Shown here piece by piece: positions 10,643-43,721 of a stretch of DNA of 64,000 bases. The stretch's first letter is position 1. Every line of letters starts with the position of its first letter. This stretch comes from a virus. The translations under genes were made by a program, and so were the position numbers. The DNA is taken from the IMG/VR virus record IMGVR_UViG_3300042691_008788, positions 1 to 64,000 of that record. One strand, given 5' to 3'. The notes under the pieces are model-generated. The model was not told the DNA's origin and ran no database searches. It worked only from the letters and a program-made list of their open reading frames with translations.

Positions 10643-10645
10643 ATA
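10638..10645 (+). promoter_or_regulatory. T4-type late promoter
   Basis: TATAAATA upstream of the 10668 gene. Confidence 0.8.
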
Positions 10646-10667
10646 CCTCCATACAGGAGATATTCAG

Positions 10668-11213
10668 ATGAAGTCATACAGAGAATTCGTAACAGAGGCA
10701 GCATCCCGTTCCCTTTCCCGCCTACACAGCCATATTGAGCGTGGGCATATGGTAGGTTTCATCTCAGCAAGCCGTGGGAATCTTTCTCCCGCCGAGAACA
10801 ACAAGCGGACGAAGGCACTCAAGGCAAGCCTCAAGCAGCATGGATATACTCCTGTTCCTGTAAAGGGCGAGTACATCGAAGACCACAATGGAGAGAAGAA
10901 GAAGGTGAAGGAGAAGTCCTTCATGGTCCATTCAGGACAACCTGTTCAATGGTCAAGCAATCCAAACGCAGGACATGCCATCTTCTTGAAGAATCTCAAG
11001 AAGCACGGAGAGCAGTTTGGTCAAGACACCGTTCTTTCTGTTTCAAAGAAGCATGGTTCTGTGTTCCATGGAACGGGCAAGTCTGATTGGGTTCCCAAGG
11101 GTAAGAGAGCGCGTATTGGCGGGGCTGGTCTGAAGTCTGGTCCTGAGATTGAAAAGGGTGAGTTCAAGTCCCGACTGAAGAAGCGACCCTTCATCGTCGG
11201 TGGAGGTGACTGA
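10668..11213 (+). CDS. Probable internal head protein with capsid-targeting leader; DUF3293-like core
   Basis: MKSYREFVTE|A resembles the T4 IP leader MKTYQEFIAE; core GFISASR...ENN.R...L...GY.PV.G.Y.E...EKSF. Confidence 0.7.
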   Translation: MKSYREFVTEAASRSLSRLHSHIERGHMVGFISASRGNLSPAENNKRTKALKASLKQHGYTPVPVKGEYIEDHNGEKKKVKEKSFMVHSGQPVQWSSNPNAGHAIFLKNLKKHGEQFGQDTVLSVSKKHGSVFHGTGKSDWVPKGKRARIGGAGLKSGPEIEKGEFKSRLKKRPFIVGGGD

Positions 11214-23411: not shown

Positions 23412-23440
23412 TTGCCGCAAGTGCCGATTTACCTTATACT
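23412..23440 (+). promoter_or_regulatory. Early promoter (probably leaderless) for the vWA gene
   Basis: TTGCCG-N17-TATACT, ATG 7 nt downstream, no SD. Confidence 0.7.
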
Positions 23441-23446
23441 TACAGC

Positions 23447-25996: not shown

Positions 25997-26033
25997 GTCA
26001 AAACTCAAACTTCCCAAAGGAGAGAACACCACA

Positions 26034-26360
26034 ATGAACCAGAACAAGACCGCCAACTTCACCACCATCACCACCCACAGGATTCAGGGAGGTCAGTACA
26101 ACAGCCTGATGACCTTTGAGGTGCAGGATGGGAAGGACATTGTGAGGATTCGCAGTTACTTCAATGCCAACGAGAACAGGTATGTGGAGTCGTTCAGCAT
26201 CAATCCCCCCGAAGCCGAAGGTCGCGAAAACGGCTGGGTCATCGATGCCGAAACCTGGTACGACATCAAGATCGGCAGGGCAATCTACAAGTACATGACT
26301 AGGGACGAGAAGAACAATCCCGATTTCATGAACCATATCCCCTTCCTCCCCGTGCCTTAA
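26034..26360 (+). CDS. Hypothetical protein
   Basis: AAGGAG RBS; followed by a terminator. Confidence 0.7.
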   Translation: MNQNKTANFTTITTHRIQGGQYNSLMTFEVQDGKDIVRIRSYFNANENRYVESFSINPPEAEGRENGWVIDAETWYDIKIGRAIYKYMTRDEKNNPDFMNHIPFLPVP

Positions 26361-27281: not shown

Positions 27282-27776
27282 ATGAGATACACAGAAGCAA
27301 GAGCAATCCTATCAGAAGCAATCGAACAACTTGATGAGACAAAACTTTTACAGAGACAAATATCTCCAGGACAACAAGGAGGCTCAACAAAGTTTTATCC
27401 GCGAGATGACCCGTCTTCTCCTTATCATTGGTACCCGACGAATGATGAGCCATTTGGACCATCGAAGTGGTTTCCGTTACCAGCCTATCCTGGTGATGCG
27501 CCACCTCCCCCAATAGATCTACGCAAGCCACCACCACCACTAAGGAGTCCAAAGGAACGACTACAGGATGAACAAGATAGAGCAAAGCGCAAAGACTATA
27601 ATGATACGCGACAGAGGGATCGATTAAGAGACTTTCGCAAAAAAATACAGGATGGATTAAACCAGAAACCATATCAAAGACCTTATGTGGCACCTTCTGG
27701 ACCTGGTGCGGGTTGGAATAATCCATATAGCCGCCCTTCTGAGCCTCCTCACCAAACTAGACCAGACTTTGACTAA
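27282..27776 (+). CDS. Pro/Arg-rich protein, paralog 1 with leader MRY..ARAILSEAIEQLDE
   Basis: Leader shared with 27803 and 28522. Confidence 0.8.
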   Translation: MRYTEARAILSEAIEQLDETKLLQRQISPGQQGGSTKFYPRDDPSSPYHWYPTNDEPFGPSKWFPLPAYPGDAPPPPIDLRKPPPPLRSPKERLQDEQDRAKRKDYNDTRQRDRLRDFRKKIQDGLNQKPYQRPYVAPSGPGAGWNNPYSRPSEPPHQTRPDFD

Positions 27777-27802
27777 TCAAACTTCTCAAAGGAAACAGGA
27801 AA

Positions 27803-28486
27803 ATGAGATACGAAACAGCAAGAGCAATCCTATCTGAAGCCATCGAACAGTTGGATGAGAAAGAACTCCTACAAAGACTTGTAGACCCAGGTGATAGCAC
27901 ATTTGAACGCTCGCGTGGAGGATCAAAAAAACCATCTAGCCCAGGCATATGGGGACCGCAGTATCGACCGTTAAGACCAGATCCATCGGAACCAGTTGTA
28001 TACCCTCCAGCCAACCCTCAACAAAAACTTCCACCAGTTTTTAGACCAGATTTTGAGGACAGTCCACAAACTCCAAGACCAAGAGATCCAGATCCAGAGT
28101 ATGGCAATCCTTTTAACCGCAAACCTTGGGGGTGGCAACCAGGCAAGCCTCTTGAAATTCGTCCACCTGTTTATAGCCCCGATGGTGATCTTATAAAACC
28201 TGCAATATTCCCGTGGACAGAACCACATAGACCTCTACCCCCACCTGAGAGCAGACCAGAAAGACCTTCAAGAATTCCCCGCCCACCCATAGGTGGGCAA
28301 CCAAGAGTTCCAGGTGTAAAGTATCCCAATGATGCGGGTGGTCTGCGTGGTCCATTAGATCCTATTGAAATCGAACGAAGACGCAATAATCTACAGCGTG
28401 ATCGTGAAAGGTTGAGAAGATTCCGTGATCAAGTGCGAGATGGATTAAACCAAAGACCATATCAAAGTCAACCGCGATTCAGATAA
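27803..28486 (+). CDS. Pro/Arg-rich protein, paralog 2
   Basis: Same leader; C-terminal RLR.FR....DGLNQ.PYQ shared with paralog 1. Confidence 0.8.
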   Translation: MRYETARAILSEAIEQLDEKELLQRLVDPGDSTFERSRGGSKKPSSPGIWGPQYRPLRPDPSEPVVYPPANPQQKLPPVFRPDFEDSPQTPRPRDPDPEYGNPFNRKPWGWQPGKPLEIRPPVYSPDGDLIKPAIFPWTEPHRPLPPPESRPERPSRIPRPPIGGQPRVPGVKYPNDAGGLRGPLDPIEIERRRNNLQRDRERLRRFRDQVRDGLNQRPYQSQPRFR

Positions 28487-28521
28487 TGTGGATAGCCTAG
28501 CATGATAAGAAAGAAGCAAAA

Positions 28522-28875
28522 ATGAGATACGAAGCAGCAAGAGCAATCCTATCTGAAGCCATCGAACAGTTGGATGAGTACAAATATATGCAGCCAGTGG
28601 ACCCCGTATACCCATTTGATCCTGCAAGAGATAAGTTCAATCCTAAGAAACACATGCATGATGTCTGGATGCCCGTTCCACCCACAGGAGTGGATCCAGG
28701 CTTACCACGCGTTCCACCAATAGACATTGGAAAACCACCACCACCAATGATGACTCCACAAGAAAGAGCGGAGGAAAGAAGGCAGGAAGGTATGAGGCGT
28801 TATCGTGGGGAAAGAATACTCCGTGACCGACTGAGAAAATTCGGTGATACAGTACGAGATGCATTACGCCGTTAG
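28522..28875 (+). CDS. Pro/Arg-rich protein, paralog 3
   Basis: Same leader; PPID..KPPPP...P.ER shared with paralog 1. Confidence 0.8.
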   Translation: MRYEAARAILSEAIEQLDEYKYMQPVDPVYPFDPARDKFNPKKHMHDVWMPVPPTGVDPGLPRVPPIDIGKPPPPMMTPQERAEERRQEGMRRYRGERILRDRLRKFGDTVRDALRR

Positions 28876-28915
28876 AATTAAAAGATAATACAGAAACTTG
28901 ACAAAGAGAGAAAAG

Positions 28916-30235
28916 ATGAACAACCTATTCCTAAACCACCTAAACTCAATCACACCTCAAGGAAAAGCCAAAGATACATGCATCTTTGTTCCTGCAAGTG
29001 ATATTAATGAAGCCCCCAAGTATGTCCAAGATGCCATTCCCGCAGTCCCAAATCTTTACATGCTCACCTACAGTCCTGGTGAGAAGAATGAGACTCAGGG
29101 TGGAAGGAGGAAGTTCGTTGGTAAGATGAAGAAGAATCCTTCTATGGTCTATGAGGGTGCCTACAAGGGTGCCATGGAGGATTGGCTAACTGATCTTCCC
29201 AAGCCAGCGATTGCGGAACTCAAGGCAAAGCACGGGAAGGAACTTGCCCATACGGGTGGAGCGGGATACCGAGACATTGCCACCAAGAAGACCCTTCCAC
29301 TTCACAAGTCCATCGTCGGCATCCTGAAGAAGCACAAGGTCAAGCCATTTGCCCAAAACATCCATGACTCGTCCCATGTCATCCAGATGTCATTCCATAC
29401 CTTCCATGGTGACATGAATGAGGAGAAGCATGTGGATGATGAGGGTGGAATGGCAATGGGTGAACTCAAGTCTATTATTGCAAATGCTAATGACATCATG
29501 TCGATGCTAAAGTCTGATTCTCAACTTGAGGGATGGGTTCAGTCCAAGATTACGAAATCAGCAGATTACATTTCTTCAGTGAAAGACTACCTTTCCAATA
29601 CTCCAAATTCGATATCTGAAGAGGAGAAAAAGAAAGAAGAAAATGAAGAATCAACCAAGAGCATGATTGCTCGTCTTGTTGCTAGGGGTCACAAGAAACT
29701 TGGTAAAAAGATTCCCGATGATGTGATCCGCGATGTCGATCCAAAGTACAAGACCAAGGATGACATGTACGAAGCCGCACAAGAGATAGACAATCTTCCT
29801 CCAAGCGACAATCCATTTTGGCAAGGTAGTAGAACTAGAAAGCCATCTGATGGAAGACCAAATCTTTTTTGGAGAAGGAAAGTAAATCCTGGTAATGAAA
29901 TAGATGCTCTTGAGCCAAGAGGATCAAGAGATATTCGCTATTTTGAAGGACAGAGGCAGTTGAGAGATAGGCTTCCTTCAAATCCTCCTCCAAGTGTAGC
30001 AGAGGCAGCACCCGACATTGGACAGAACCTCAAGGGGATGCCAAAGAGGGCGGGTAGAAAACTTGCATATGCTTCCAAGAGGTGGGGCAAGGGCGAAATC
30101 CCATACAGCGAGTACAAGGTTGCGGATGAAAGACACACCCGCAAGATGGGTGGAAATGCAAGACGAATTGGAAAGAATCTTGACCAAGCCGTGACAGACT
30201 TCATCTCAAGGAAGCCAAGACGAAAGCGAAGATGA
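28916..30235 (+). CDS. Putative head-packaged polyprotein
   Basis: Leader MNN.FL.HL.SITPQGKA shared with 34526; repeated hydrophobic-X-E|(A/G/E/S) junctions; contains the conserved EG.MA...L....LEGWVQSKITK.ADY module. Confidence 0.75.
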   Translation: MNNLFLNHLNSITPQGKAKDTCIFVPASDINEAPKYVQDAIPAVPNLYMLTYSPGEKNETQGGRRKFVGKMKKNPSMVYEGAYKGAMEDWLTDLPKPAIAELKAKHGKELAHTGGAGYRDIATKKTLPLHKSIVGILKKHKVKPFAQNIHDSSHVIQMSFHTFHGDMNEEKHVDDEGGMAMGELKSIIANANDIMSMLKSDSQLEGWVQSKITKSADYISSVKDYLSNTPNSISEEEKKKEENEESTKSMIARLVARGHKKLGKKIPDDVIRDVDPKYKTKDDMYEAAQEIDNLPPSDNPFWQGSRTRKPSDGRPNLFWRRKVNPGNEIDALEPRGSRDIRYFEGQRQLRDRLPSNPPPSVAEAAPDIGQNLKGMPKRAGRKLAYASKRWGKGEIPYSEYKVADERHTRKMGGNARRIGKNLDQAVTDFISRKPRRKRR

Positions 30236-30240
30236 GTTAG

Positions 30241-30549
30241 ATGAAATCATTCAATCAGTTCATTTCCGAAAGTTCAGAAAGACTTGTGAAGATTAAGCAG
30301 TCTGGTCATTCTGCAAACATCCGCAAGATTGATGACAACACATCCATGTTCTCTCATCGTGGTGTGGTCGGTCATGTGACCAAGGCATGGAACCGCATGG
30401 GTGGTTGGGGGTATCAGGCGGGGAACATCCGCGTGAATGGTAAGGATGTCGGTCTTCCCGTGATCCATGGAACACACAAGACCATGAATGATGCCATTCA
30501 CAATGCCTATCAGCACACGATGTGGCACATGTCCAAGGGGAAGAAATGA
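30241..30549 (+). CDS. Internal head protein-like (capsid-targeting leader)
   Basis: MKSFNQFISE|S. Confidence 0.75.
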   Translation: MKSFNQFISESSERLVKIKQSGHSANIRKIDDNTSMFSHRGVVGHVTKAWNRMGGWGYQAGNIRVNGKDVGLPVIHGTHKTMNDAIHNAYQHTMWHMSKGKK

Positions 30550-30914
30550 AGTCCTTCATGCAGTTCATTTCAGAGCAGAATGAGAACACGATCAATGACT
30601 TCGTGCAGTTCGCTGCACAGGAACTTGGCTTGCAGACCACTCCAAGCATCAGGTTGTTGCAGTCGCGTGAGAATGGCATGACCACGGCATCCTATTGCCC
30701 CGAGGACAAGAGCATCAAGGTATTGTGTGGCAACAGAGCCACATTTGACATTTGCAGATCCATTGCACATGAGTTGGTGCATCAGATGCAGGATGAGAAT
30801 GGCGATGAACTCGACGGAGAGACGGGATCACCATGCGAGGATGAAGCCAATGCACTCGCGGGTAGGTTGATTCGCACCTATGGCGGCAACAATGCTGGCT
30901 TCTATGAGGAATAA
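30546..30914 (+). CDS. HExxH metallopeptidase with capsid-targeting leader
   Basis: MKSFMQFISE|Q; RSIAHELVH.MQ...EDEANA. Confidence 0.8.
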   Translation: MKSFMQFISEQNENTINDFVQFAAQELGLQTTPSIRLLQSRENGMTTASYCPEDKSIKVLCGNRATFDICRSIAHELVHQMQDENGDELDGETGSPCEDEANALAGRLIRTYGGNNAGFYEE

Positions 30915-30917
30915 GAG

Positions 30918-31421
30918 ATGAAGACCTACGAACAGTTCATTGCAGAGGCAATGGAAATAAAGAATCTTTCCGAGAATTGGTCATATGCTCATGATTTTGA
31001 TGAGATGCCGAACTCAGAGAAGCAGAAGTATGTCTACCATGTCACAACGGCAGCAAGGGCAGCAAAGATTGTCAAGCATGGTCTGAAGCCACGCAGTCCA
31101 AAGGGTCGCACCAACTACCCAGGCAACAAGGAATACACCCAAGGTCATGCATTCGTGACCAATCATCAAGGTGTGCGCTATTGGAAGGATCAGACGCTTC
31201 ATGCAGTGAATCGACGCAAGCGCGAGGTGGATGAAAGAGACTACGAAAACATCCATGTGGTAAAGTTCCCAATCTCAAATCTCGCAAAGTCCACAAAAAG
31301 AAAGTTCACGACCGATCAACTTGGCACCAAGGATGCAAGGAAACATGATGATGATCCACTCATTGATCCATCAAGTCATGAAGGATCCACCGCATTCAGG
31401 ATTCGAAAGAAAGTCCGCTGA
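30918..31421 (+). CDS. ADP-ribosyltransferase-like (YHxT...GL) protein with capsid-targeting leader
   Basis: MKTYEQFIAE|A, near-identical to the T4 leader; YVYHVT....KIVKHGLKP...AFVT resembles the ART/Tpt1 strand-1 motif. Confidence 0.65.
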   Translation: MKTYEQFIAEAMEIKNLSENWSYAHDFDEMPNSEKQKYVYHVTTAARAAKIVKHGLKPRSPKGRTNYPGNKEYTQGHAFVTNHQGVRYWKDQTLHAVNRRKREVDERDYENIHVVKFPISNLAKSTKRKFTTDQLGTKDARKHDDDPLIDPSSHEGSTAFRIRKKVR

Positions 31422-31523
31422 TACCAAGCCTCACACCATAGATGGATTGATTGGTGGATTTGATGTATCAGAATGGTGGTACATATCCACCATTGATGAT
31501 GAATAACCCAGTCAAGCGCAGAC

Positions 31524-31554
31524 AGGAGAGGCTAACCCCTCTCCTTGTTGTTTT
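31524..31554 (+). terminator. Intrinsic terminator followed by late promoter CCTAAATA
   Basis: AGGAGAGG-CTAACC-CCTCTCCT then TGTTGTTTT. Confidence 0.75.
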
Positions 31555-31568
31555 CCTAAATATCACAT

Positions 31569-33728
31569 ATGAATACCATTACAATAACCAAGATAGAAGA
31601 AGCATCCGCACCCAATAAGGGCAAGGCATTTCTCCTTGCTGGATCGTTCAGTCCATACACGGTTGGACACCATGAGGTTGCACGACAAGCCGCTGAACAT
31701 GCTAAAGGTACAGGTCATACGCACTTCTACCATGGCATCGGTGGTGCGGCAAAGCAGACGCACGACGATCCATTGACACACGCACAGAAGAGATCCATTG
31801 TCCGTGCTGGTCACAGAGAACTCGCAAAGGAACACAAAGGGTTGAAGTTCCGTGCGATGGGATCGGAGCAAAGAGATCCATTCAGGCAACTTGCACACCT
31901 CGCGCAGAGGGGTCACAAGCACATCACGGTTGGTCTTGGCTCCGATCAGATGAAAGGCAAGTTGAAAAGGGAAATAGAGGGCAGCATTGCAAAAAAGGGT
32001 GGCATTGAGGACAAGACGGGAAAGATCCACAAGGTCAGGGTGGACTTCCATCAACTTGGTGGAGAGAGACACGAAGGAGAGATGCCACGACATGAGGTGT
32101 TGAGTAGATTGAGGAAGGGAGACATCAGCGTTGCAAAGGCTGGTCGTCTTCGCAAGGCGGTTGCATCTGGTGATACAGAACTAGCACATGAACTCATGCC
32201 AAAGCACATGAATAAGCCAAAGTACTTCGGCATGATCAAGTCCGCACAATCGAAGATAGCAAAGCCAAAGAAGAAGGTGGTGAAAGAAGGCTACATGTCC
32301 TTCGCTGAGTTTGTTTCGGAGGACATCGAACTGATTCCCGTAACTAGAGATAGAGATGCAGGGAAGCCAAGGAAAGCAGAGGTTGTCCACAAGGACTATG
32401 GAACGAAGACCTACTCATCCGACAAGGTTGTGACTCGAAAGAATCATGGAGAGATTCATCCTGGTTACGAACTTCATCAGCACTCCGTCGAGATGGACAA
32501 CAACAGACCGAGTGGACCACAAAGGATTGTGAAGCACAAGTTCACGATAGTACACAAGGCAAGCGGAGATATCGCTGGAGAAATGCACGCTTGGGGTGGC
32601 AAACTTCATCCGAAGAAGGGCGTTGTGTTTGGGTCAAAAGGCAAGGCACTGAAGGTATCTCATCTTGAGATGCATCCCGAACACGGCAGCAAGAAGGTCG
32701 GAGCATCTTTGCCCGTTGAAATGTACAGACATCTTCATAGAAGAGGACATGCCATTCAATCTGATTCAGTACAGAGCCACGGTGGAGCGCATGTGTGGAA
32801 CACAATGCGTAATGATCGTGAACTCAAGAAGCACATGATGATCCATGATGATGACAAGGTAGACACGAAGCAAAAACATGCATTTCAGACTCGCGCATAT
32901 AGAAGACCAGAGAGACACATTTGGCACCAGTTCAGCAGAAGTTGGAGTGGCGGAAGAGATAATCCATCAAAGGTAGAACCAGAGTATGGAGTTGATCCCG
33001 ACTTCAAGAGGACATTGATTCTTGCTGGTAAGAAGCGCAAGAAGAAGCCCGCTGTTGTATCGGAAGACATTGAGATGGCTGATATTCTTGTAAAGCCGAA
33101 GAGCGGTGGACTGAGTCCACGAAACTTTGAGAAGATGGTCGCACACAAAGGGTTGAAGCCAAAGAGATCTGGTAAGATTGCAAAGGGATACACTCTCTAC
33201 ACATCGGTTGATGCAACACATCCCGAATTTGAAGATCACCATATCGTGCATGATGCAACAGGACATGTTGCGGGTGAAGTTTCGACTCGCACATCTGGCA
33301 ACGACCACACGGTCATTCACACAGATGTTCATGGAGATCACACACAGAAAGTAATAGGAAAATCCCTTGCCGTGCTTGCATATAAGCACCTTGCAAAGAA
33401 GAAGGGAAACCTACACAGCAGCAGTCTACAGAGTCCTGGTGGTGCATCCATATGGAATAGACTTCGCAAGAATCCAAAGATGAAGGGTCAGGTCTTTCAT
33501 AAGATGAGAGGACAGGCAGAGGTTCCTGCACACGATCTACCCGATAAGAAGATATGGGCAACAGATGTCAAAGGTGGAATGTCATCATCCAACAAAGATA
33601 TTCCAAAGCCTCTTCCTCCATCGAAGCATCATGCCGCAGAGCATGAAAATGTGATAGGATCGCGTCTTGTGATCAGACCCATAAAAAAGACTAAATATAA
33701 AAGTACCAAAACAGGAGAAACAAAATGA
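31569..33728 (+). CDS. Multidomain protein: cytidylyltransferase-like (HIGH-type) domain plus two GNAT-like domains
   Basis: GSFSPYTVGH...DPL...GSD; two copies of H.(E/D)...G....Y.HL......S...QS.GG...WN; domains separated by SE|DIE. Confidence 0.65.
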   Translation: MNTITITKIEEASAPNKGKAFLLAGSFSPYTVGHHEVARQAAEHAKGTGHTHFYHGIGGAAKQTHDDPLTHAQKRSIVRAGHRELAKEHKGLKFRAMGSEQRDPFRQLAHLAQRGHKHITVGLGSDQMKGKLKREIEGSIAKKGGIEDKTGKIHKVRVDFHQLGGERHEGEMPRHEVLSRLRKGDISVAKAGRLRKAVASGDTELAHELMPKHMNKPKYFGMIKSAQSKIAKPKKKVVKEGYMSFAEFVSEDIELIPVTRDRDAGKPRKAEVVHKDYGTKTYSSDKVVTRKNHGEIHPGYELHQHSVEMDNNRPSGPQRIVKHKFTIVHKASGDIAGEMHAWGGKLHPKKGVVFGSKGKALKVSHLEMHPEHGSKKVGASLPVEMYRHLHRRGHAIQSDSVQSHGGAHVWNTMRNDRELKKHMMIHDDDKVDTKQKHAFQTRAYRRPERHIWHQFSRSWSGGRDNPSKVEPEYGVDPDFKRTLILAGKKRKKKPAVVSEDIEMADILVKPKSGGLSPRNFEKMVAHKGLKPKRSGKIAKGYTLYTSVDATHPEFEDHHIVHDATGHVAGEVSTRTSGNDHTVIHTDVHGDHTQKVIGKSLAVLAYKHLAKKKGNLHSSSLQSPGGASIWNRLRKNPKMKGQVFHKMRGQAEVPAHDLPDKKIWATDVKGGMSSSNKDIPKPLPPSKHHAAEHENVIGSRLVIRPIKKTKYKSTKTGETK

Positions 33729-34525
33729 GCATTCCAAACATTCAGCAGCAACTTTACCTCAAGAAAGCACTCAATGAGGACACCGATGGGATGTTCGATC
33801 ATCCAACTCTTGATGAAGGTTCCTATGTTCACTCAAAGAAGCAACTCAAGAAAGCCGTCAAGGGTTCAAAGAGAGAGATTGTCAAGGCACTCAAGCGCGG
33901 CAACAAGAAAGATGCTGAGTTTTGGATGCAGAACAAGAAGGACGCAGAGTCACAAATGTCTGAATCCATTGCTGAAGGTTCTTATGTTCACTCAAAGAAC
34001 CAACTAAAGAAGGCTGTCAAAGGTTCAAAGAGAGAGATTGTCAAGGCAATGAAGCGCGGCAACAAGAAGGATGCAGAGTTTTGGATGCAGAACAAAAAGG
34101 ATGCAGAATCACAAATGTCTGAATCCATTACTGAAGGTTTGCTCCGCAGATACAACGAACTCACAGAAGGATCACGCGGTCTTGCTCGTTATCAGCGCAT
34201 CGTAAAGGCATTGACAAAAAAGGCCGCTTCTTTGAAATCCACCCCAAAGCCAACAACAATGGCTGGTGATGAAGCACTTCATAAGAGAACTATGAATAAA
34301 CTAAAACTTTCAAAGGGTCAGCAGTTGCGTGACCGTGTGCAGATTTCTCGCGAACGCATGAGGGCTGGATTGGCTCCAAGCATTCCATCAAAGACCGTGA
34401 GTCCCGCTCAAGGTGATGAGACAGGAACATGGAGAATCAAGTCTGGTGCTGATCGCGCGCCAAAAACAGTTTTAAAGTATCGCGCAGCATCGGCAGCAAA
34501 AGCAGCAAAAGGAAAGGCCAAGTAA
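33725..34525 (+). CDS. Putative head-packaged polyprotein with a 53-aa tandem duplication
   Basis: Four E|G junctions; basic segments between them. Confidence 0.75.
   Translation: MSIPNIQQQLYLKKALNEDTDGMFDHPTLDEGSYVHSKKQLKKAVKGSKREIVKALKRGNKKDAEFWMQNKKDAESQMSESIAEGSYVHSKNQLKKAVKGSKREIVKAMKRGNKKDAEFWMQNKKDAESQMSESITEGLLRRYNELTEGSRGLARYQRIVKALTKKAASLKSTPKPTTMAGDEALHKRTMNKLKLSKGQQLRDRVQISRERMRAGLAPSIPSKTVSPAQGDETGTWRIKSGADRAPKTVLKYRAASAAKAAKGKAK
33814..34131 (+). repeat. Two-copy 159-bp tandem repeat
   Basis: TGAAGGTT at 33814, 33973 and 34132; copies encode GSYVHSK.QLKKAVKGSKREIVKA.KRGNKKDAEFWMQNKKDAESQMSESI.E. Confidence 0.95.
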
Positions 34526-35554
34526 ATGAACAATCAGTTTCTACAACATCTCAAGTCCATCACTCCTCAAGGCAAGGCCGAGGAGAAGAAGATATTCATC
34601 TCAGCAGAACGACTCAAGGAGTTGGAGGCAGAAGAACTTGATGAGGCCACACGCTCCAAGTATCTAAAGGTATATGGTAAGCACAAGGTTGGAACTGATA
34701 CAGGCGCACTTGAACTTGCAAGAAAGAAGCACGATGCTGCCATCATGCGTCGCGGTGGTGCTTCTCCAGAGGCAGTTAAGAGGGGACTAGCCAATGAATA
34801 TGGCATAGACCACGAAGTTGATATGGCAAAGTATAGATTTGCAAACAAGAGGGCTAAACACTTAGATAAAGCGATTGCCAATTATAATAGAAAAGCAAGC
34901 AAGTCAACGAACGAGGCCGTATCAACCAATGACCCAAACAGAGGTCGCATGGGAAGAGCAAAGCCAAAACTACCACCTGGTCTAGATCCTTATGATATGT
35001 ACAGCAAGGGTGAGATTCAACCATATGGTGGCAAACTTCAGAAGAGACTTCGCTCAATGAGTGCAGAAGATCGCAAGAGATACTATCAGCAGATCGGCAT
35101 TCGTTCACGCGCTGCAAGCCGTAGTGGAAAGACTCAGAGATTGTTTCCTATGACTGAAGGCGTTAAGAGGATGCGTAGGCTTCGCTCTGCGCGATTTGGG
35201 CAACAGGGAACCACGAAGGAACTTGATGCTGCCTATGATAAGGAACTCTCCAAGGTGAGCGCAAGCCGTCTTCGTCGTGGCGGTGCGCCAAAGCAGACCG
35301 TTCGTGCGTTCTTCACAGACAAGCCAACCACAAAGGCAGCGGACAAGGCATATTCGAAGTTCTCCAAGGATGCAATGAACAAGGCAAGTGCCAAGGGCAA
35401 GAAGATCTTCGAAGCAACTAAGGTTGGCAAGAAGATCAAGCGCAAGATTGTGAAAGCAAAAAACAGGCTTCGCAACATCGGAAGAAGAGTAGTAGATACA
35501 CTTGGAACTCCCCAAGATAATACAGATTACATGCTCACTGGTAGGAAGTTCTAA
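34526..35554 (+). CDS. Putative head-packaged basic polyprotein
   Basis: Leader shared with 28916; LDE|A, TNE|A, MTE|G and IFE|A junctions. Confidence 0.75.
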   Translation: MNNQFLQHLKSITPQGKAEEKKIFISAERLKELEAEELDEATRSKYLKVYGKHKVGTDTGALELARKKHDAAIMRRGGASPEAVKRGLANEYGIDHEVDMAKYRFANKRAKHLDKAIANYNRKASKSTNEAVSTNDPNRGRMGRAKPKLPPGLDPYDMYSKGEIQPYGGKLQKRLRSMSAEDRKRYYQQIGIRSRAASRSGKTQRLFPMTEGVKRMRRLRSARFGQQGTTKELDAAYDKELSKVSASRLRRGGAPKQTVRAFFTDKPTTKAADKAYSKFSKDAMNKASAKGKKIFEATKVGKKIKRKIVKAKNRLRNIGRRVVDTLGTPQDNTDYMLTGRKF

Positions 35555-35566
35555 AAGGAAATAACA

Positions 35567-37009
35567 ATGAAGACTAGAGATCTTAAATCACTATCAGAAA
35601 CAATCGCATCCGTGGTCGATCCAATCGATAAGGAACGCGCACAGATGCTACAGGAAGGCTTTCTCAACTCGTTGACCGAGAAGGCTCGTCAGATCGCTTC
35701 CAAGGAAATGGAAGATGAAGGCGAAGAGGAAGAAGACGAGGACGAGATGGAGGATGAAGGCGAAGAGGAAGAGAAGCCAACCTCCAAGAAGAAAAAGGCC
35801 AAGATGGATGAGGCTTATCCAACGACTTATGTACCAGAACCAAAGCCAGTAAAGCCAGAACCAAAGCCAGTAAAGCCAAAGAAGAAATTGAGTGATTATA
35901 GATCAAAGCCTTATCCAAAACTCACCAATGAGGACATCGAACTTGCAGAGAAGGCAGCACCTGGCTATGAGGATTGGGCATCCGATCCCAAGGTCAAGGC
36001 ATCCTTCAAGAAGCAATACGGCAAGCGTTGGAAGGAAGTCATGTACGGACACTCATGGAACCTTGCCAAGCAGGAAAACAAGTTGGGTTTGGATGAAGAA
36101 GAACAGTTGGATGAATTGACTGATGCCCTTATTAGCAGGGCAAGGAACAAGGCAATCCTACGAGGTCCAGAGAAGCGTGGTTTTGTTAAGAAAGCAACAA
36201 AGAGACTCCAATCAAGCGGAGCAATGGCTCCACGACCAAGCACTTCGACGGAACGCGATTCACAGTGGAACAAAGCATTCAATGAAGAAACTGATTTGGA
36301 TGAAGCAGTATCCGCCAAGCGTATGCGTATCATCCGCAAGTATGTCAAGGGAAATAAGAGAGTTCCAGAGCATCTGAAGGACTACATGGAGAGATCCTTC
36401 AAGAAGAAGAGGTTCAAGGACAAGCAACTCTCCGATGGTAGAGGAGCAGTCGGTGCATTGGAGACTCGTATGCGTAGGAAGTCTGCTGCACTAAGAGCAA
36501 GAGGCATTGAACCAAAGGGTGTTGCACCAGGATACCTTGAAGAAGGCATCCTCAAGAAACTTCGCAGGGCCAAGGGAGCAGCATATGCTGCCATGCAAAA
36601 GGGAGAGGGAGACAAGTATGCCAAACTCCATGGAGTGGCATCTGGACTTGAGTCAAGGTACAAGGCAAGTATGGCTCGTCGTGGTGAAGCAACACAAGAG
36701 ACAGTAAGGGGTGCGGGAAGCCGCCTTTCCAAGAAGGGCAAGTATACTCTCAAGGCAGGAAAACTAGCCACACAGCATGACAATGCAATCTCCCGTTTCC
36801 GCACGAAGGTTCGCACGGCAGAGTTGTTTGGCAGGGAAACCGATAAGGGAGCAAAGAGAGAGCGTCAACAGGCACAGGCCAAGTTCCGCATGGATGCTCG
36901 TCACGGAGATTTTGGTTATAATGACATAATTACTCCCGAGATCAAGAAGGCTGGCCTGAGAGCGCGTTACAACTACGAAAAGAGATACGGTAGACTAAAG
37001 GGAAAGTAA
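35567..37009 (+). CDS. Putative head-packaged polyprotein
   Basis: LSE|T, LQE|G, MDE|A, LAE|K, LDE|L, LDE|A and LEE|G junctions; acidic and PEPKPVK repeats. Confidence 0.75.
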   Translation: MKTRDLKSLSETIASVVDPIDKERAQMLQEGFLNSLTEKARQIASKEMEDEGEEEEDEDEMEDEGEEEEKPTSKKKKAKMDEAYPTTYVPEPKPVKPEPKPVKPKKKLSDYRSKPYPKLTNEDIELAEKAAPGYEDWASDPKVKASFKKQYGKRWKEVMYGHSWNLAKQENKLGLDEEEQLDELTDALISRARNKAILRGPEKRGFVKKATKRLQSSGAMAPRPSTSTERDSQWNKAFNEETDLDEAVSAKRMRIIRKYVKGNKRVPEHLKDYMERSFKKKRFKDKQLSDGRGAVGALETRMRRKSAALRARGIEPKGVAPGYLEEGILKKLRRAKGAAYAAMQKGEGDKYAKLHGVASGLESRYKASMARRGEATQETVRGAGSRLSKKGKYTLKAGKLATQHDNAISRFRTKVRTAELFGRETDKGAKRERQQAQAKFRMDARHGDFGYNDIITPEIKKAGLRARYNYEKRYGRLKGK

Positions 37010-37025
37010 TAAAAGGAGATAGATC

Positions 37026-37142
37026 ATGGCAAAAGTGAAGACACCCGCAAGACCACGCATTCGGGAACTAAAGCATCAGTTGTACATCAAGGCATTGAAC
37101 CGCAAGAAGAACCTTGATGGGTGCAATGGTAGAAAATACTAA
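37026..37142 (+). CDS. Small basic protein
   Basis: AAGGAG RBS; MAKVKTPARPRIRELKHQLYIKALNRKKNLDGCNGRKY. Confidence 0.6.
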   Translation: MAKVKTPARPRIRELKHQLYIKALNRKKNLDGCNGRKY

Positions 37143-37217
37143 ATATTCAAACACGCACTGATATTCTAGAACCTATCAGCGCACTCACATAGTTTCGAAA
37201 CTACGAAAGGTAAGAAA

Positions 37218-38204
37218 ATGGCAATCAATAGAGACGCATACAAGTCACTCGTAGAGTCAGTCAATGAGGCTGTCTCTGCACCATCAGTGGGTGCATCAAA
37301 GGGTGCAGCCCGTGTAAGAGGCGGAAGAACTTCCTCGACTGCATCATCCAAGCCATCGAATCTCCAATGGGGTTCATCGGCAATCGGTGGAGCAATGAAC
37401 GCAACTGAACTTGCACAATGGCTTGCATCACAGCAAGGAAGTGGAAAGCAAGGCCCATCAGTCGGCGTTGCTGACACAGCAATGGGTGTTGCGAAGGGAT
37501 CGGCAGCAAAGAACCTCTCCAGCGTATCTGGAAGAGGTGGCTCAAACACACAGCGTGCAGCAGCATCATCTTCTGGGTGGGGTGGCTCTGGTGTCTACGG
37601 TGCAAAGAATGCAGAAGATCTTGCCCGTATCCTAAATCAAATGCAGAATGATGGGCCATCTGTTTCGACGGGTGCATCAAAGGGTGGCATGAAGTCACGA
37701 AACAATCCACTCTCAAGTCGCAAGCCAGGATCAACGAGTTCATCTAAGCCAGCAGCAAAGAAGCCAACCGTTTCCGTTGCTGATGTTCAAGAAGCACTTG
37801 ATATCCTTGCAGAGGCTCAACTAAACGAGTGGCCGATCAATATTGGTGGCCGCACTGCAAACAATGCATCTGAACTTGCACAGATCCTAAACTCAATGCA
37901 GAATTCAGGAAAGCCATCGGGTTCAACTCCATCTGTTTCTAAGGGAGTTGCTGGTGCTGCCCCAAGAGGAAACCTCCTATCAAACCGTAGACCAGGTACA
38001 ACTACAACGGCAAAGCCAGCACCAAAGGCTCCAACAGTTGGAGTTGGTGGCATAGGAGCAATGTCTGAAGAATGGGACATCCTTGACGAGATCCTCGCAG
38101 AAGGTCTTGAACTCTACGGGGAAGAAGGACTCGCAGAGATCCTTGCTCACTTCGCAGAGACTGGCGAGATGTCCGAAGAACTCGCTGATCTTCTTGGCGA
38201 ATAA
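37218..38204 (+). CDS. Gly/Ser/Ala-rich protein with three NA.(E/D)LA..L...Q repeats; probable head protein
   Basis: ACTAAATA late promoter at 37138; VNE|A and LNE|W junctions; acidic C-terminus. Confidence 0.75.
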   Translation: MAINRDAYKSLVESVNEAVSAPSVGASKGAARVRGGRTSSTASSKPSNLQWGSSAIGGAMNATELAQWLASQQGSGKQGPSVGVADTAMGVAKGSAAKNLSSVSGRGGSNTQRAAASSSGWGGSGVYGAKNAEDLARILNQMQNDGPSVSTGASKGGMKSRNNPLSSRKPGSTSSSKPAAKKPTVSVADVQEALDILAEAQLNEWPINIGGRTANNASELAQILNSMQNSGKPSGSTPSVSKGVAGAAPRGNLLSNRRPGTTTTAKPAPKAPTVGVGGIGAMSEEWDILDEILAEGLELYGEEGLAEILAHFAETGEMSEELADLLGE

Positions 38205-38226
38205 TCAAACTTAGTTAAACTTAGTC

Positions 38227-38262
38227 ACAAGGGGAGAGGGTAAAACCTCTCCCCTGTTATTT
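38227..38262 (+). terminator. Intrinsic terminator
   Basis: AGGGGAGAGG-GTAAAA-CCTCTCCCCT then GTTATTT. Confidence 0.8.
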
Positions 38263-38274
38263 CATAAATACATC

Positions 38275-39318
38275 ATGGAGGATTATCTTGGAATGGCCGA
38301 TTCTTTAACATCAAGCATCACTAGAGTTCTCATGGAGAGTCATGATACGGACTTGTCTGGCAAGTTCTCATTATTCACTCTTTATTCGGACAACAGTTCA
38401 GTTCTTCACATCTTCGAAGACGAGGAAACCTTTGAAGCCATGAAATACAAGTTTTCATCAGATGACAACATCAAGCGTCTCGGTGCCTCAAGGTTGCCAG
38501 AGAACACTACCTTCAAGAAACTTTCAGAATCAATAGAGCGCAAGTTCGATGTGCCAAGAGAAACAATCTCAGTCCGCACACACGATCCCATGCCCAAGGA
38601 ACAGCCACAGCCCAAGAAGGTTGTGAATGAAATGAGGAAGGCTCCCATGCAGCCCAAGAAGGGTTCCGTGGTAGAGAGCGTCCTCAAGGGCAGAGAAAGA
38701 TTCTCAAACCAACCAAGACAGCAGATGCCTCAGATGGAGGCACCCAAGGAAGAGCCTACAATCAACTCCTTCCGCCCCGCAACGAACCAAAAAATAGATC
38801 TGTCCAAGTTGAACAGCGGCGACAGACCAATGCTAGGATGAACCATGGCCGAAAAGAAAGATAAAGAATCAAAAGAGAAGTCATCATCCAACGAGAAAAC
38901 ATATCTCGTCAAGTACAGGCTCAAGGGCGAGAAGGGAAGGACTCCTCGCAAGATCACTGTACAGGCATTGAACCAAGCCGATGCCAAGAAGACTGCAATA
39001 GCAACCATTCCTGGTGCAGAAGTTGTCGGTGGGGCAAAGGAACTCAGCGAAGGTGTGCTTGACTTTGCGGGTCGATTGGGTAAGTTTGCAAGTAGATGCG
39101 CTGGTAGACTCTGCCATGCCTATTCAAGTAGCCCAATCAGGGACAAGGGAAGCATCTCCACCACAAGAAAGATATTCACAAGAGAACTAGCCCACATGGC
39201 TGGAAACAAACTCATGGATATTGGTGGAGAAGATGCAAGACCAATGTCAAAGATGCGATTCTCAAGTGGCAGAAAGAAGAAAAAGACAACTACTAGAAAA
39301 AAGAAACGATCACCATAA
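38275..39318 (+). CDS. Two late hypothetical genes (38275/38293-38841, 38845-39318)
   Basis: CATAAATA late promoter at 38263; LME|S and LSE|G junctions. Confidence 0.7.
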
Positions 39319-39333
39319 TACTTGAGGTGAGTA

Positions 39334-40485
39334 ATGGCATTTGAATACAAACCAAAAGACTTTGGATTTTCTGGTAAAGAAATCGCATTTGAGCAGTATG
39401 TAAAAACTGTTAAGTCTGTAGTGAATAAACTATCAAGCAAAGATCATCCTGTAAGATACATGATGTCACTTGTTGAACATGCCAATGGCGAGATAAGCAA
39501 TGCAGATCTTAAAAAAGTCTGCGATGCAACTAAACTCAGCACCGCACAAAAAAACAATATACAAAAATACTTTGCTGAAGTTGTTGGTCCTATTTGGTCA
39601 ACGCAGAACAATGTATTTGGTGATACGCCAAATCCCAAGAAATGTTTTGTGTTTCATCCATCTGCGGCAAATACTCCATTGACTGATTATGAAGTTCGTA
39701 TCGTTGGTAGCGATGGTAAAAAAACAGCACATGCTAGACAAAGTACAAAGAAAAAACTAAACGAAGCAAACTCTGCTATGCGTTCGATGAGAATATCGGC
39801 AAAGTCTGGCACCACTACCAACACAGTAAAAGCAAAAGACATACTCAGTGTTCTTCGTGAAAGAAATGGTATAAACGAAAAAAACTGGAAGGGGTCTGTG
39901 GAAGAACAATTACTTGAGGTTATTGCAGACTCAAGCACTTCAGTTGGTCCATTGAGTGGTGCCATATTACTCACTCAGAAGAAAGTAATTACCAACTATA
40001 CTCCTACCACAACTCTACAAAAACTTGTGGATACTTTGTCTTCGGGCGGAACAGCAAAGACATTACTAGGAAAGTCTGTTGATACTGTGCTAAATGACAA
40101 AGAAGTTCAGTCTCTAAAGCCAATAGTAGAGGCAGAAAAATCACTGAATCACTTCATAAACAACAAAGGAAAAGTAGTTACTCATTCAAACAAGGATTCA
40201 TTGATTGTTGGATATATCTGCGTTGCAGTAGAAAGATATCTGCAAAAGATATCACAAAAATCAGATAAACTCGAACTTGATGGGATTTTTTCAGATGCTA
40301 TTGGTGGCATCATAAACTATGTTGAGTTCACCATTGATTCTTCCAATTTTCCAAAATGGAAATATTATGGAATGAAAGAATTGAACAACATAGATGGTTA
40401 CTTGCGTTCAAAGAATAGTCTATCAACTCGTTTGGCAAAGCGAGGAATGGCCGACTCACTTGGATTCCAACCTGTATTCAAATAA
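39334..40485 (+). CDS. PD-(D/E)XK nuclease-like protein
   Basis: FAEV.GP...P..N.PL.DY...ISAKSG pattern; AT-rich. Confidence 0.55.
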   Translation: MAFEYKPKDFGFSGKEIAFEQYVKTVKSVVNKLSSKDHPVRYMMSLVEHANGEISNADLKKVCDATKLSTAQKNNIQKYFAEVVGPIWSTQNNVFGDTPNPKKCFVFHPSAANTPLTDYEVRIVGSDGKKTAHARQSTKKKLNEANSAMRSMRISAKSGTTTNTVKAKDILSVLRERNGINEKNWKGSVEEQLLEVIADSSTSVGPLSGAILLTQKKVITNYTPTTTLQKLVDTLSSGGTAKTLLGKSVDTVLNDKEVQSLKPIVEAEKSLNHFINNKGKVVTHSNKDSLIVGYICVAVERYLQKISQKSDKLELDGIFSDAIGGIINYVEFTIDSSNFPKWKYYGMKELNNIDGYLRSKNSLSTRLAKRGMADSLGFQPVFK

Positions 40486-40498
40486 CCTAAATATTTGC

Positions 40499-41074
40499 AT
40501 GGGTCATGAACTACACATCATCGCGGGAATCGACTACTCGTTGTGTGGTCCTTGCATCTGCGTCTTTGAAGGTGGTGCAAAGTTCTCGTTCGATGACTGC
40601 TGCTTCTACTTCCTGACAGATACCAAGAAGTATGCAAAGGTTTTTCTTGGAAACATCCACGGAGAGTTGTTCTCTGAGTGGGAACAAGACATGGAGCGGT
40701 ATCAGAGCATCGCTGATTGGGCTGTGGATATCCTCAAGAATGTCAAGCAAGTCGCACTTGAGGGATATGCATACTCAGCCACGGGAAAGGTCTTCCACAT
40801 CGCTGAGAACACGGGAGTCCTAAAGTACAAGTTGTTCAGTGAAGGCATTCCCGTGACTATCATACCACCAACAGAAGTGAAGAAGTTCGGTAGTGGCAAG
40901 GGCAATGCTGACAAGACCGCTATGCATGAGGCATTTCTAAAGGAAACGGGAATCGACCTCAAGGCCATCATGACACCCGACAAGAGAGATGTTGCATCCC
41001 CCGTGTCTGATATCGTTGATGCCTACTACATCTGCAAGAAGATGCACGGCGAGTTGATCCTATCGTCTATTTGA
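40499..41074 (+). CDS. RuvC-like (RNase H fold) Holliday junction resolvase
   Basis: GIDYSL, ALEGYAY, AENTG.LK, P..VKKF..GKGNADK, DIVDA. Confidence 0.85.
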   Translation: MGHELHIIAGIDYSLCGPCICVFEGGAKFSFDDCCFYFLTDTKKYAKVFLGNIHGELFSEWEQDMERYQSIADWAVDILKNVKQVALEGYAYSATGKVFHIAENTGVLKYKLFSEGIPVTIIPPTEVKKFGSGKGNADKTAMHEAFLKETGIDLKAIMTPDKRDVASPVSDIVDAYYICKKMHGELILSSI

Positions 41075-41946: not shown

Positions 41947-43721
41947 TCATCGCACCATCGACTTTCTTTTCTTCAAAGACTTTGCTCTCTTGCGGTTTGC
42001 TGCTGCTCTCTTCTTCTTGGACTTGCGAGCAGACTTCTTTGCTTGTCTTGACCTCTTGGCTTTCTCAGCCCCACCCATCTTGATGCAAGCCTTGCCACCA
42101 CGCTTTGCCAACTTCTGTCCCTCTGGACACTTGAAGACGATGCGCTTCTTTCCACCACGAATGACGATCTTGCGCTTTGCACCCTCGGCAAGCATCTCAA
42201 GTTCCTCGACGGGAATCAAATCAACTACCTGATCCATGGTGATGTCATCAACGCCATGAATGATGTAGTGTGTCTCCGTGAGCGAGGTGTTCGTGATGTC
42301 GAGTGACAACTTCATCTCATTCACTGGTTCGGACTGCTGTCCCTTGGCGAACCTTGGATTCTCAAAGTTTTTCTTGGGGAATCCCTTCGGACCCTGACGA
42401 ACCAACTTGACCTGTGTGGCATTCTTACCCTTGCCAAGCGTGGATACGAGTCCCTCATGCTCCTCGCCATCATGTGTCTTTATGTCGAACTGATGCTCAT
42501 GCCCACGGAACTCATCAAGCATGTGGTGAGTTGCCTGAGCGATGTGATGGTGTGCCTTGAACAATGCCTTGAAGTGGTGGACATTGTCATCGATGTCCTT
42601 GTGCAGTTCACCGAGTTTCTTTGCCCTACCCTTCTCGCTCTTTGTGGTTCTGTCAACCCACTTCTTTGCATGAGCCTTCAACCCTTCGACGCTGCGGAGT
42701 CCCGTTGTCCTTGCTGCGGTGTTGGAGTAGTTCCTCACCATGTCATGCATCTGCGAGTGAACACCTTCTCCACTTGCAAGCCTACGGGAGAACTCATGCA
42801 CTTCTGGAGTCAGGTGCTTCTGTGCGGCGGCAAGATGCTTGGTGATCTGCCTGTCGCGATTCGCTGCAAGGGACAACTTGATCTTCTTGTTGATGGCAAG
42901 ATCGGGAGCATGGACTCCTTCACCCTGTATCTGACTCACATCTGGATGGCTTGAGACTTTCTTCATGCCTTTGTTCCTGTCTTGGGAAGTTTATACTGCG
43001 AGTGAGCGGCAATGGTCAATGTCGCACCAGGCTTTGTCTTGTAGGTGATCGTATTTGGCTTTGCTGTTTCCGATTTGGTATCGGTATGATGGACGAGATC
43101 AGCCTGAAATGCATGACCAGGCTCGATGTTCATCTTCTTGACATGACGCAGAGCGGGTATGAGGTCACGGACATAGTGTTCCTTGCCTGTCTTATGAATG
43201 TCTTCCTCGCTTGTGAAGGTGGCATCCTCATTGCCGTGCTTGGAGCGGACAAAATGAGTTCCATCATGATGGCGACCTATCACGATGCTGTGACCGCCAT
43301 CGACCTTGAGGGATGGTTGATGTCCCTTGGTGATCTTGCCCTTGAACCTCTGATGCATGGCAGTCATGTGCTTCATGGCAACCGATGGATCACCATGGTA
43401 GAGATAGTCCGCGACATGTTCAAGATGTCCCGTGGTGGCTTTCTTGCTCCTCTTGAGTGCCATCTCCATGAGATCGGACTTTTGCTTTGGCTTCCTGCGC
43501 CAGATGCCTCTACCAAACTCTCTTTGCTTGTACTTGGGGGAGACAGGCTCGCCATCCGAAACCATGGCAAGACCAGGAGCAGAGGCCGTGTTTGCAACCT
43601 CTTCATCAAAGAACATCTCAAGGATATCCATCTTGTCTTGGTCGAGCATTGCCTCTGCAACAAGAAGCCGTGCCTCGGCTTCGATGCTCTCAACAAGGAA
43701 TCTTTCGTAACTCTTGCTCAT
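41947..43721 (-). CDS. DUF6267-type (RNA-ligase-like, KxDG) protein, split by an apparent frameshift at about 42975 into 42963-43721 and 41947-42966
   Basis: HLEH, SLKVDG, QADL, PNTITY, EHEG.V and KLV motifs run in order across the two ORFs. Confidence 0.7.

Follow-up and report, generated by a model that had tools for sequence, protein, structure and literature searches.

What is a 12-kb block of orphan genes doing in the genome of an uncultured, T4-like phage? The block consists of 14 consecutive plus-strand open reading frames (ORFs) at positions 27282 to 39318 of the window, by which we mean the whole 64,000-nucleotide (nt) stretch analyzed here, the first 64 kb of the 156,618-bp IMG/VR virus record IMGVR_UViG_3300042691_008788 (G000; estimated to be 86% complete). 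Searches of Pfam and PHROGs left nearly all of its products without an assignment. A sequence-only reading of the window had proposed that these genes encode polyproteins that enter the prohead behind recurring leaders, are cut there by the phage's protease, and release basic peptides that are injected with the DNA. We give a probability of roughly 65% to this whole chain of events, in which precursors would be targeted to the capsid, cut by a gp21-type protease, and delivered, as basic pieces and enzymes, with the DNA. Targeting to the head and cutting at the joints are more likely than injection with specific functions. The evidence that we regard as decisive is comparative: the shuffling of segments among related phages, and the rule that their junctions appear to follow.

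We refer to each gene by its first coordinate. The 14 ORFs lie where the sequence-only reading placed them, and its three leader types begin 8 of them: MRY leaders in 27282, 27803, and 28522, MNN leaders in 28916 and 34526, and leaders resembling the T4 capsid targeting sequence (CTS) in 30241, 30546, and 30918. The other six have N-termini of their own, which are kept in relatives. The CTS, the specificity of the T4 prohead protease gp21, and the diversity of T4 internal proteins are all established (PMC3012670, PMC9026906). A 10-amino-acid (aa) CTS suffices for packaging, the internal proteins behind it are diverse and basic (PMC9026906, PMC3012670), and gp21 recognizes the short motif L/I-X-E, cleaving on the C-terminal side of its Glu (PMC9026906). 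The T4 leader named in the sequence-only reading, MKTYQEFIAE, indeed stands, followed by Ala, at the start of T4 internal proteins IPII and IPIII. Gene 30918 starts with MKTYEQFIAE, also followed by Ala, and shares 8 of 10 residues with that CTS. A leader of about 10 aa that resembles it and ends in L/I-x-E is found in 30241, 30546, 30918, and also 10668, a further CTS gene recovered by a genome-wide leader scan; the same scan found a CTS-like start on the minus strand at 42963-43721. The MRY leaders (12 aa), the MNN leaders (32 to 40 aa), and the others (about 30 aa) likewise end in the motif, yet they have no sequence similarity to the CTS.

To quantify the motif, we counted [LIVM]xE[AGS] and took expected counts from per-protein shuffles. 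The 14 cluster proteins contain 33 sites against 10.8 to 11.2 expected (z = 6.6 to 7.1), a density of 8.6 per 1000 aa compared to 2.8 in the other 149 predicted proteins. This roughly threefold difference bears out the expectation that such sites would be denser here than in non-head proteins; the rest of the genome, with 124 observed and 117 expected, is at expectation. Control motifs with D at P1, with K/R or a hydrophobic residue at P1', or with K/R at P3 were not enriched in the cluster proteins. A site at residues 8 to 45 occurs in 12/14 cluster proteins and in 14/149 proteins elsewhere (Fisher p = 1.5e-9), and three of those 14 outside proteins are accounted for by gp21 and the two further CTS genes.

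The junctions that had been quoted from the long ORFs (LDE|A, TNE|A, and so on) are all present in the sequences, and about five genes are multi-module chains. The description of the genes as polyprotein precursors would apply only to these; of the others, three are Pro-rich single bodies and three are single-domain cargo. The MNN-leader protein 28916 (28916-30235, plus strand, 439 aa) has predicted cuts after aa 32, 80, 286, and 363 (nt 29011, 29155, 29773, and 30004) and a final module with a net charge of +15. In 33725 (33725-34525, plus strand, 266 aa), predicted cuts after aa 31, 84, 137, and 148 would separate a 31-aa acidic leader, two 53-aa basic repeats, an 11-aa piece, and a 118-aa module (net +22). 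The second MNN-leader polyprotein, 34526 (34526-35554, plus strand, 342 aa; predicted cuts at nt 34645, 34915, 35158, and 35413), has a leader at residues 1-40 and modules at 41-130, 131-211, 212-296, and 297-342, each with a net charge of +11 to +15. Finally, 35567 (35567-37009, plus strand, 480 aa) has a 30-aa leader ending in LQE|G, an acidic spacer, and basic modules; its cuts after aa 30, 128, and 246 are supported, and a predicted cut at aa 326 has no support from a change of context. Cutting at these sites would yield acidic or neutral leaders (net charge -4 to 0), and most of the other pieces would be strongly basic (pI 10-11.5, net +11 to +25). The predicted mature parts of the cluster proteins have a pI of 9.3 to 11.5, except for those of 30546 (pI 4.4), 37218, and 38293. 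The long ORFs had been described as alternating K/R-rich segments with acidic junctions; 37218, with only 9% K+R and a net charge of 0, does not fit this description.

If these sites are joints, then modules should be separable at them in other phages. We compared the cluster with four related metagenomic phages, the IMG/VR relatives L004/L005 and L013 and the ENA assemblies L015 (a 159-kb contig) and L016, and with about 130 homologues, among which the segments differ in order, copy number, gene, and leader. The window, L004, L015, and L016 share a vWA/HExxH peptidase gene upstream, and gp32 lies downstream in L015 and L016. Between these flanks, blocks are rearranged between the window and its relatives, with breaks at the Glu joints. 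The 28916 modules are reordered in the L004 gene at 6014. An MNN-leader gene of L004 runs from the leader into the last 28916 module, then the middle 34526 module, then the first 28916 modules; in the L004 homologue of 33725, a 34526 module and one 33725 repeat are combined with a different 34526 module that is present twice; and a short L004 gene consists of nothing but the MNN leader and the last 34526 module. In L016, the gene at 10001 interleaves 35567 modules with modules of the 34526 gene. The proposed shuffling of segments between genes and phages is thus seen in L004, L015, L016, and the wider set of homologues.

A phmmer search with the 34526 protein against 1.84 billion representatives returned 75 proteins, 57 of them at E <= 1e-10, and those that we looked up were all metagenomic sequences that were unnamed or labeled "hypothetical protein." Division of 34526 at the four predicted joints gave five pieces, which recurred in the 75 homologues in many orders, combinations, and copy numbers, and the homologue alignments nearly always started at residue 1 of the piece. 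The 33725 protein gave 56 homologues, likewise shuffled, in which the leader precedes many different sets of modules; one of these chains carries the MNN leader in an internal position.

Segment boundaries, which had been expected to be conserved in homologues, keep the motif there. Among 160 unique internal module starts, P1 is Glu in 152 (background Glu, 6.6%), P3 is L/I/V/M in 145, and P1' is Gly or Ala in 145; P2 is variable and P4-P5 are acidic. The per-position background for [LIVMFT]xE is 2.2%. At the level of sequence, this pattern is the rule published for T4 gp21. We also examined whole-protein BLAST alignments, which are independent of the predicted cuts, and found that positions where collinearity is lost fall within 3 aa of the motif for 31% of starts and 25% of ends, compared to 14% of random positions, with no excess for decoy motifs. 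We relied on this breakpoint-offset test and the junction logo instead of a decoy-controlled segment test that did not discriminate; that test was uninformative, since ungapped upstream identity represents context poorly and its E-x-L decoy lies inside acidic linkers. One module has an x-T/S-E ending only where a further module comes after it; in C-terminal position it lacks that ending.

Leaders, too, are exchanged. The 30241 body has a CTS in the window, L004, and L015 and sits behind an MKY-type (MRY-class) leader in L016 (2939-3265), with the swap falling exactly at the leader's Glu. The last 28916 module is a stand-alone, leader-bearing gene in L016 (3302). In L004 and L016, the GNAT-like domain of 31569 is found after an MRY leader and also after an MKTY leader; three copies of it are part of a 1,304-aa CTS-led L016 chain that also holds a homologue of the window's minus-strand genes at 41947-43721. 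Where neighboring genes have fused, as in the 31569 protein and the homologues P0098 and P0110, the downstream gene's leader (CTS-like or MNN) is kept as an internal joint; in P0098, the HExxH protein is fused in this way, through a CTS-like joint, behind an ADP-ribosyltransferase (ART)-like core. The MNN leader and a conserved C-terminal module ending in TGR-K/N-F also co-occur as bookends around variable inserts, as in window 34526-35554, L004 12308-12556, L016 9104-9958, and many P00xx matches, a pattern that points to a role for both ends in loading or anchoring. An AlphaFold2 model of the 34526 protein has no confident global fold (mean predicted local confidence, pLDDT, 61.6; predicted template modeling score, 0.26) and resembles helical beads on a string, with three of the four joints in low-confidence linkers (pLDDT < 50).

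The phage encodes the machinery that such a system would use. A gp21-type prohead protease (Pfam Peptidase_S77, PF03420, 130.9 bits) lies at 111875-112522 of G000 on the minus strand, and a Gp23 major capsid protein (E = 1e-136) lies at 109216-110688 on the same strand. Between them is a gene for a 374-aa gp22-type scaffold with a net charge of -80, with genes for the portal and a gp67/68-like protein alongside it. As positive controls for the motif, the scaffold (seven sites, 18.7 per 1000 aa) and the protease are among the densest proteins of the genome. In the capsid propeptide, LRE|A at residue 48 is the last [LIVM]xE site; it lies about 17 residues upstream of the column aligned with T4 Glu65, and this propeptide may be shorter than that of T4. 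The identity of the major capsid protein to its counterparts in cyanomyoviruses, Pelagibacter phage Mosig, and Methylophilales phage Melnitz does not exceed about 56%, and we therefore consider the phage to be an uncultured, distant T4-like myovirus. The cluster itself is set among replication and recombination genes (gp32, RuvC-like), outside the head module.

From these observations we infer a route for docking, cleavage, packaging, retention, and injection. A short acidic or neutral leader would dock each precursor on the very acidic gp22 core during prohead assembly. The activated gp21-type serine protease would then cut after [LIVM]-x-Glu, removing the leaders and dividing about five long precursors into separate 45- to 120-aa basic modules (pI 10-11.5) and a few enzyme domains. 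Acidic leaders and scaffold fragments would exit the head, whereas the basic pieces would remain on the packaged DNA, serving as counter-ions or shields, and would accompany it out of the head at infection, alongside enzyme cargo that may include a SAM lyase, an ART-like protein, an HExxH peptidase-like protein, and nucleotidyltransferase- and GNAT-like domains. The cut motif would serve as a universal joint at which modules and leaders could be swapped, duplicated, and fused between genes without loss of function, and a motif that doubled as a recombination-tolerant joint in this way would account for the mosaicism. We advance only tentatively, as the less probable case, the bolder possibility that, in an uncultured clade of T4-like phages, the prohead-protease sites are the joints of an injected, fast-evolving arsenal that changes in a manner akin to exon shuffling. 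Leaders, basic modules, and enzymes of every kind could then be combined, loaded through a single address tag, and separated in the capsid, and the small basic peptides would have specific roles at DNA entry. Such roles might include shielding the DNA from, or inhibiting, restriction, CRISPR, and other nucleases, beyond charge neutralization.

Several observations weigh against processing and delivery as outlined above. Some joints have D, Q, K, T, or Y at P1', which are not the commonest residues at T4 sites, and the counts over the 160 module starts are not fully independent, because the motif itself first served to delimit the modules and the homologues are related by descent. A mild enrichment (z = 3.2 to 3.5) is also seen for the reverse motif and for [LIVM]xK[AGS]. 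Alignment to T4 gp23 placed no E-site of the capsid protein in the T4 Glu65 column, and LRE48|A is therefore a predicted maturation site only. The proteins 37218 and 38293 lack a basic character and could serve some other purpose. Boxes like NATAAATA stand only before 10668, 33725, 38293, and 31569; the claim that these are late genes thus has partial backing at most, from the boxes before a few of them. Finally, neither a megablast search with the 12-kb region nor a tblastn search with the 34526 and 38293 proteins matched any of 50,697 phage records, and by those searches the modules are in no cultured GenBank phage. In cyanophage S-RSM4, the locus adjoining the homologous peptidase holds cobS and g45; since the cargo cluster is missing from this matching locus, it is not a general cyanomyovirus feature.

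How else could these proteins be explained? They might be auxiliary core or scaffold proteins that are loaded and cut, with their pieces cleared before or during DNA packaging so that nothing functional is delivered. Most of the many fragments into which T4 core proteins are cut leave the head (PMC9026906), several sites per chain would suit such a clearance mechanism, and the non-basic 37218 and 38293 are kept in the more distant L013 and have conserved acidic ends. We nevertheless consider core clearance unlikely for the cluster as a whole: most modules are as strongly basic (pI 10-11.5, net +11 to +25) as would befit the DNA-retained T4 internal proteins, CTS-led enzymes such as the SAM lyase and the ART-like protein make sense only if they are delivered, and modules that are shuffled and replaced so fast are a mark of conflict genes more often than of assembly components. 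It is less probable still that the chains are uncut, multidomain, basic DNA-binding proteins, acting whole in the head or the cell, in which the motif is a generic acidic linker that tolerates recombination. Domain linkers are common shuffle points, the mild enrichment of the reverse motif fits this idea, and AlphaFold2 would show helical modules and flexible linkers whether or not the chains are cut. However, linkers would not explain a Glu at an exact position in 152 of 160 joints with L/I/V/M two residues earlier, the match to the published specificity of the encoded protease family (PMC9026906), the same motif closing every leader, or the loss of the x-T/S-E tail from a C-terminal module.

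A different peptidase could also do the cutting, in the style of polyvalent proteins, whose embedded zincin peptidases are thought to release them (PMC5512222); the candidates would be the upstream vWA/HExxH protein (23447-25996) and the CTS-led HExxH protein 30546. The former, an 849-aa phrog_459 protein, is syntenic with the cluster in all relatives, but it is also present in cyanophages that lack the cluster, and cutting after Glu with a hydrophobic P3 is the documented gp21 rule, with the motif shared by the phage's own scaffold and capsid propeptide; we find this explanation very improbable. Equally remote, in our estimation, is the idea that the cluster has nothing to do with the virion and is a hyperplastic region of fast-evolving intracellular takeover genes, with N-termini conserved through recent duplication. 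That nearly all of the products are orphans would be expected of such genes, as would the region's place outside the head module and the paucity of evident late promoters. Against this, a leader carries 8 of the 10 residues of an experimentally defined T4 CTS, leaders are conserved while the bodies behind them are swapped, the motif statistics and junction logo hold, and the T4 ip genes likewise lie outside the head module. Processing in the head followed by delivery with the DNA remains the reading that we prefer.

The remaining genes of the cluster, all on the plus strand, vary in character. The three MRY-leader genes are 27282-27776 (164 aa), with a 12-aa leader ending in ILSE|A and a Pro/Arg-rich basic body; 27803-28486 (227 aa), Pro-rich with a pI of about 10; and 28522-28875 (117 aa). 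Gene 30241 (30241-30549, 102 aa) has a 10-aa CTS ending in FISE|S and a basic 92-aa body. An uncalled ORF for a basic, 38-aa product at 37026-37142, kept in L015 (12933-13052), fills the gap between 35567 and 37218 and partly resembles the 33725 leader. The Ser/Gly/Ala-rich 37218 protein (37218-38204, 328 aa) has LVE|S and VNE|A in a conserved N-terminus and, following LAE|G, an acidic C-terminal tail that is also conserved, and it may be a core or scaffold accessory. The next gene, called at 38275, probably starts at Met7 (38293), giving a conserved 182-aa protein (38293-38841) with an N-terminal VLME|S site. The last, 38845-39318, encodes a basic protein of 157 aa in which LSE|G at aa 69 is conserved and the tail has a net charge of +17.

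Among the putative enzymes, the clearest is encoded outside the cluster. The 10668 gene (10638-11213 including an upstream box, plus strand), 17 kb from the cluster, encodes a CTS-led S-adenosylmethionine (SAM) lyase family protein (PF23780, E = 2.6e-14, 53.7 bits against a cut-off of 28) whose leader ends in FVTE|A. SAM lyase-type enzymes have a known anti-restriction function in T3, and the 10668 protein is a candidate capsid-delivered, SAM-degrading anti-restriction enzyme. The other cargo assignments are leads only. The CTS gene 30546 (30546-30914, plus strand, 122 aa, acidic) has an HExxH motif like that of M78/IrrE-like metallopeptidases and a PF06114 match (E = 8e-4) below the cut-off. 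For the CTS gene 30918 (30918-31421, plus strand, 167 aa), a PARP match (E = 0.02) was likewise below the cut-off, and its Atlas neighbors were Arr, DarT, and Tox-ART. Its model, with a mean pLDDT of only 66, aligned in VIA-align with the NAD lobe of Tpt1/KptA (Z = 6.9; root mean square deviation, 2.3 to 2.4 Å over 79 to 80 residues), and Foldseek returned no match at E <= 0.001 with a top of the list made up entirely of ARTs. These signals agree with one another but are weak, and since the ART-like fold rests on middling VIA-align Z-scores, we treat it as a lead.

The leader-bearing fusion 31569 (31569-33728, plus strand, 719 aa) combines an 11-aa leader (IEE|A), a cytidylyltransferase-like N-terminal domain (phrog_395, E = 4.6e-6), and two GNAT-like copies. 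It has an internal CTS-like joint (predicted cuts after aa 240 and 251), its GNAT-like copies are split at aa 499 (VSE|D), and the repeated domain matches the GNAT protein RibT weakly (E = 0.043). Sequence searches of the PDB with the 30918 and 31569 proteins found nothing. Beyond the cluster, two translationally coupled minus-strand ORFs (252 and 339 aa) at 41947-43721 carry a CTS-like leader (FLVE|S), match DUF6267 (E = 9.5e-8), and include a tail with a net charge of +32 after LAE|G. Their L016 homologue is fused, behind a CTS, to a nucleotidyltransferase polyprotein, and it has a KxDG motif like those of ligases or capping enzymes.

Signals in the DNA are compatible with late expression, although they fall short of establishing it. 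A terminator-like hairpin with a GGAGAGG/CCTCTCC stem lies at 31525-31568 (plus strand), with a T-run and a CTAAATA box just before 31569, and a second copy at 38233-38270 (plus strand) is followed by a late-promoter-like box, CATAAATA, before the gene called at 38275. The stems at 31525-31544 and 38233-38252 are identical (0 copies expected by chance), and each is followed by a T-run; the two cassettes of hairpin, T-run, and box thus split the cluster into three units. The CTAAATA box also precedes 33725. A TATAAATA box stands 22 nt upstream of the 10668 start, and the window has just two occurrences of the consensus, at 10638 and 47729, while WATACATA occurs at chance-level frequency there. 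These terminator-promoter cassettes resemble the PeSL idea, which is said to concern modular shuffling in T4-like phages.

Two neighbors of the cluster deserve a brief description. The upstream vWA/HExxH peptidase (23447-25996, plus strand; phrog_459, E = 1.4e-152) contains an acidic, Gly/Glu/Asp-rich insert, and the 881-aa antisense ORF that shadows it (23429-26074, minus strand) is almost certainly spurious. Directly after the cluster is a RuvC-like Holliday junction resolvase (40394-41074, plus strand; phrog_159, E = 5.7e-28), whose true start is likely an internal Met, judging from a 191-aa homologue in L013.

The locus is notable for its size, the diversity of its leaders, and its peptide-rich cargo. 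The T4 CTS is a textbook case of the loading of one protein, and this locus suggests a modular delivery platform with interchangeable tags and protease-jointed cargo whose modules evolve through shuffling at the protease sites. If confirmed, such a platform would account for a sizable set of orphan genes found in abundant, uncultured T4-like phages, provide new leaders and cleavable linkers for engineering the cargo of T4-type capsids, and make the injected pool of peptides and enzymes, such as a capsid-addressed SAM lyase, candidate counter-defense factors of the first minute of infection. The locus also offers a simple sequence rule, a leader plus [LIVM]xE joints, for spotting virion cargo in metagenomes. 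Our literature search found no paper on shuffled strings of basic modules at prohead-protease sites, or on multiple leader classes, in T4-like phages.

Of the systems outside the T4 lineage, the polyvalent proteins of phages and conjugative elements described by Iyer, Burroughs, Anand, de Souza, and Aravind (2017) are similar in carrying many units per polypeptide, in their predicted travel with the DNA and predicted proteolytic release, and in extensive mosaicism, and their study reports no genuine ones in T4-like phages (PMC5512222). They embed zincin-type peptidases and are mostly enzymes, whereas the joints here match a prohead serine protease and the products would be mostly short basic peptides. 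Our Pfam and PHROG searches found no peptidase or typical polyvalent domain inside the long chains; the HExxH protein is separate and is fused only in P0098. The inner-body proteins of phiKZ, 201phi2-1, and SPN3US offer a second parallel, in that a diverged gp21 homologue cuts many head proteins after Glu; in giant phages, cutting occurs at multiple sites, paralogues share identical N-termini, and multi-site propeptides act like a CTS (PMC5694885). Those phages differ in their lineage, in a motif of S/A-x-E, in long, discarded propeptides, and in having no described shuffling of modules; the joints here have the hydrophobic P3 given above, and the protease is of the S77 rather than the S80 family. 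Further afield, adenovirus pVII and pX/mu are basic, DNA-condensing precursors that are trimmed in the capsid by the viral protease. The virus, protease, and sequences are unrelated to those described here, and each precursor is a single body rather than a modular chain.

The closest likeness is to T4 itself. The T4 core proteins gp22, gp67, and gp68 also have several L/I-x-E sites per chain and are cut inside the prohead by gp21, although they are acidic and mostly expelled, whereas the cluster has strongly basic modules that evolve through shuffling. With the T4 internal proteins IPI, IPII, IPIII, and Alt, the cluster shares a nearly identical leader of about 10 aa (8 or 9 of 10 residues) ending in I-A-E|A, basic mature parts, bodies that vary behind a conserved leader, and a genome that encodes a gp21-family protease and a gp22 scaffold; the ART-like cargo parallels Alt, although the fold suggested here is Tpt1/DarT-like and not of the Alt R-S-E clade. 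What sets the cluster apart from the T4 internal proteins, as known here from sequence alone, is that it has at least three further leader classes, that each long precursor carries four to six motif-bounded modules instead of one body, and that modules and leaders recombine among genes and phages. To call it an undescribed system, as the sequence-only reading did, is too strong, because the locus elaborates the T4 CTS and internal-protein system. The cluster is best read as an expanded, combinatorial form of that system rather than as something wholly new.

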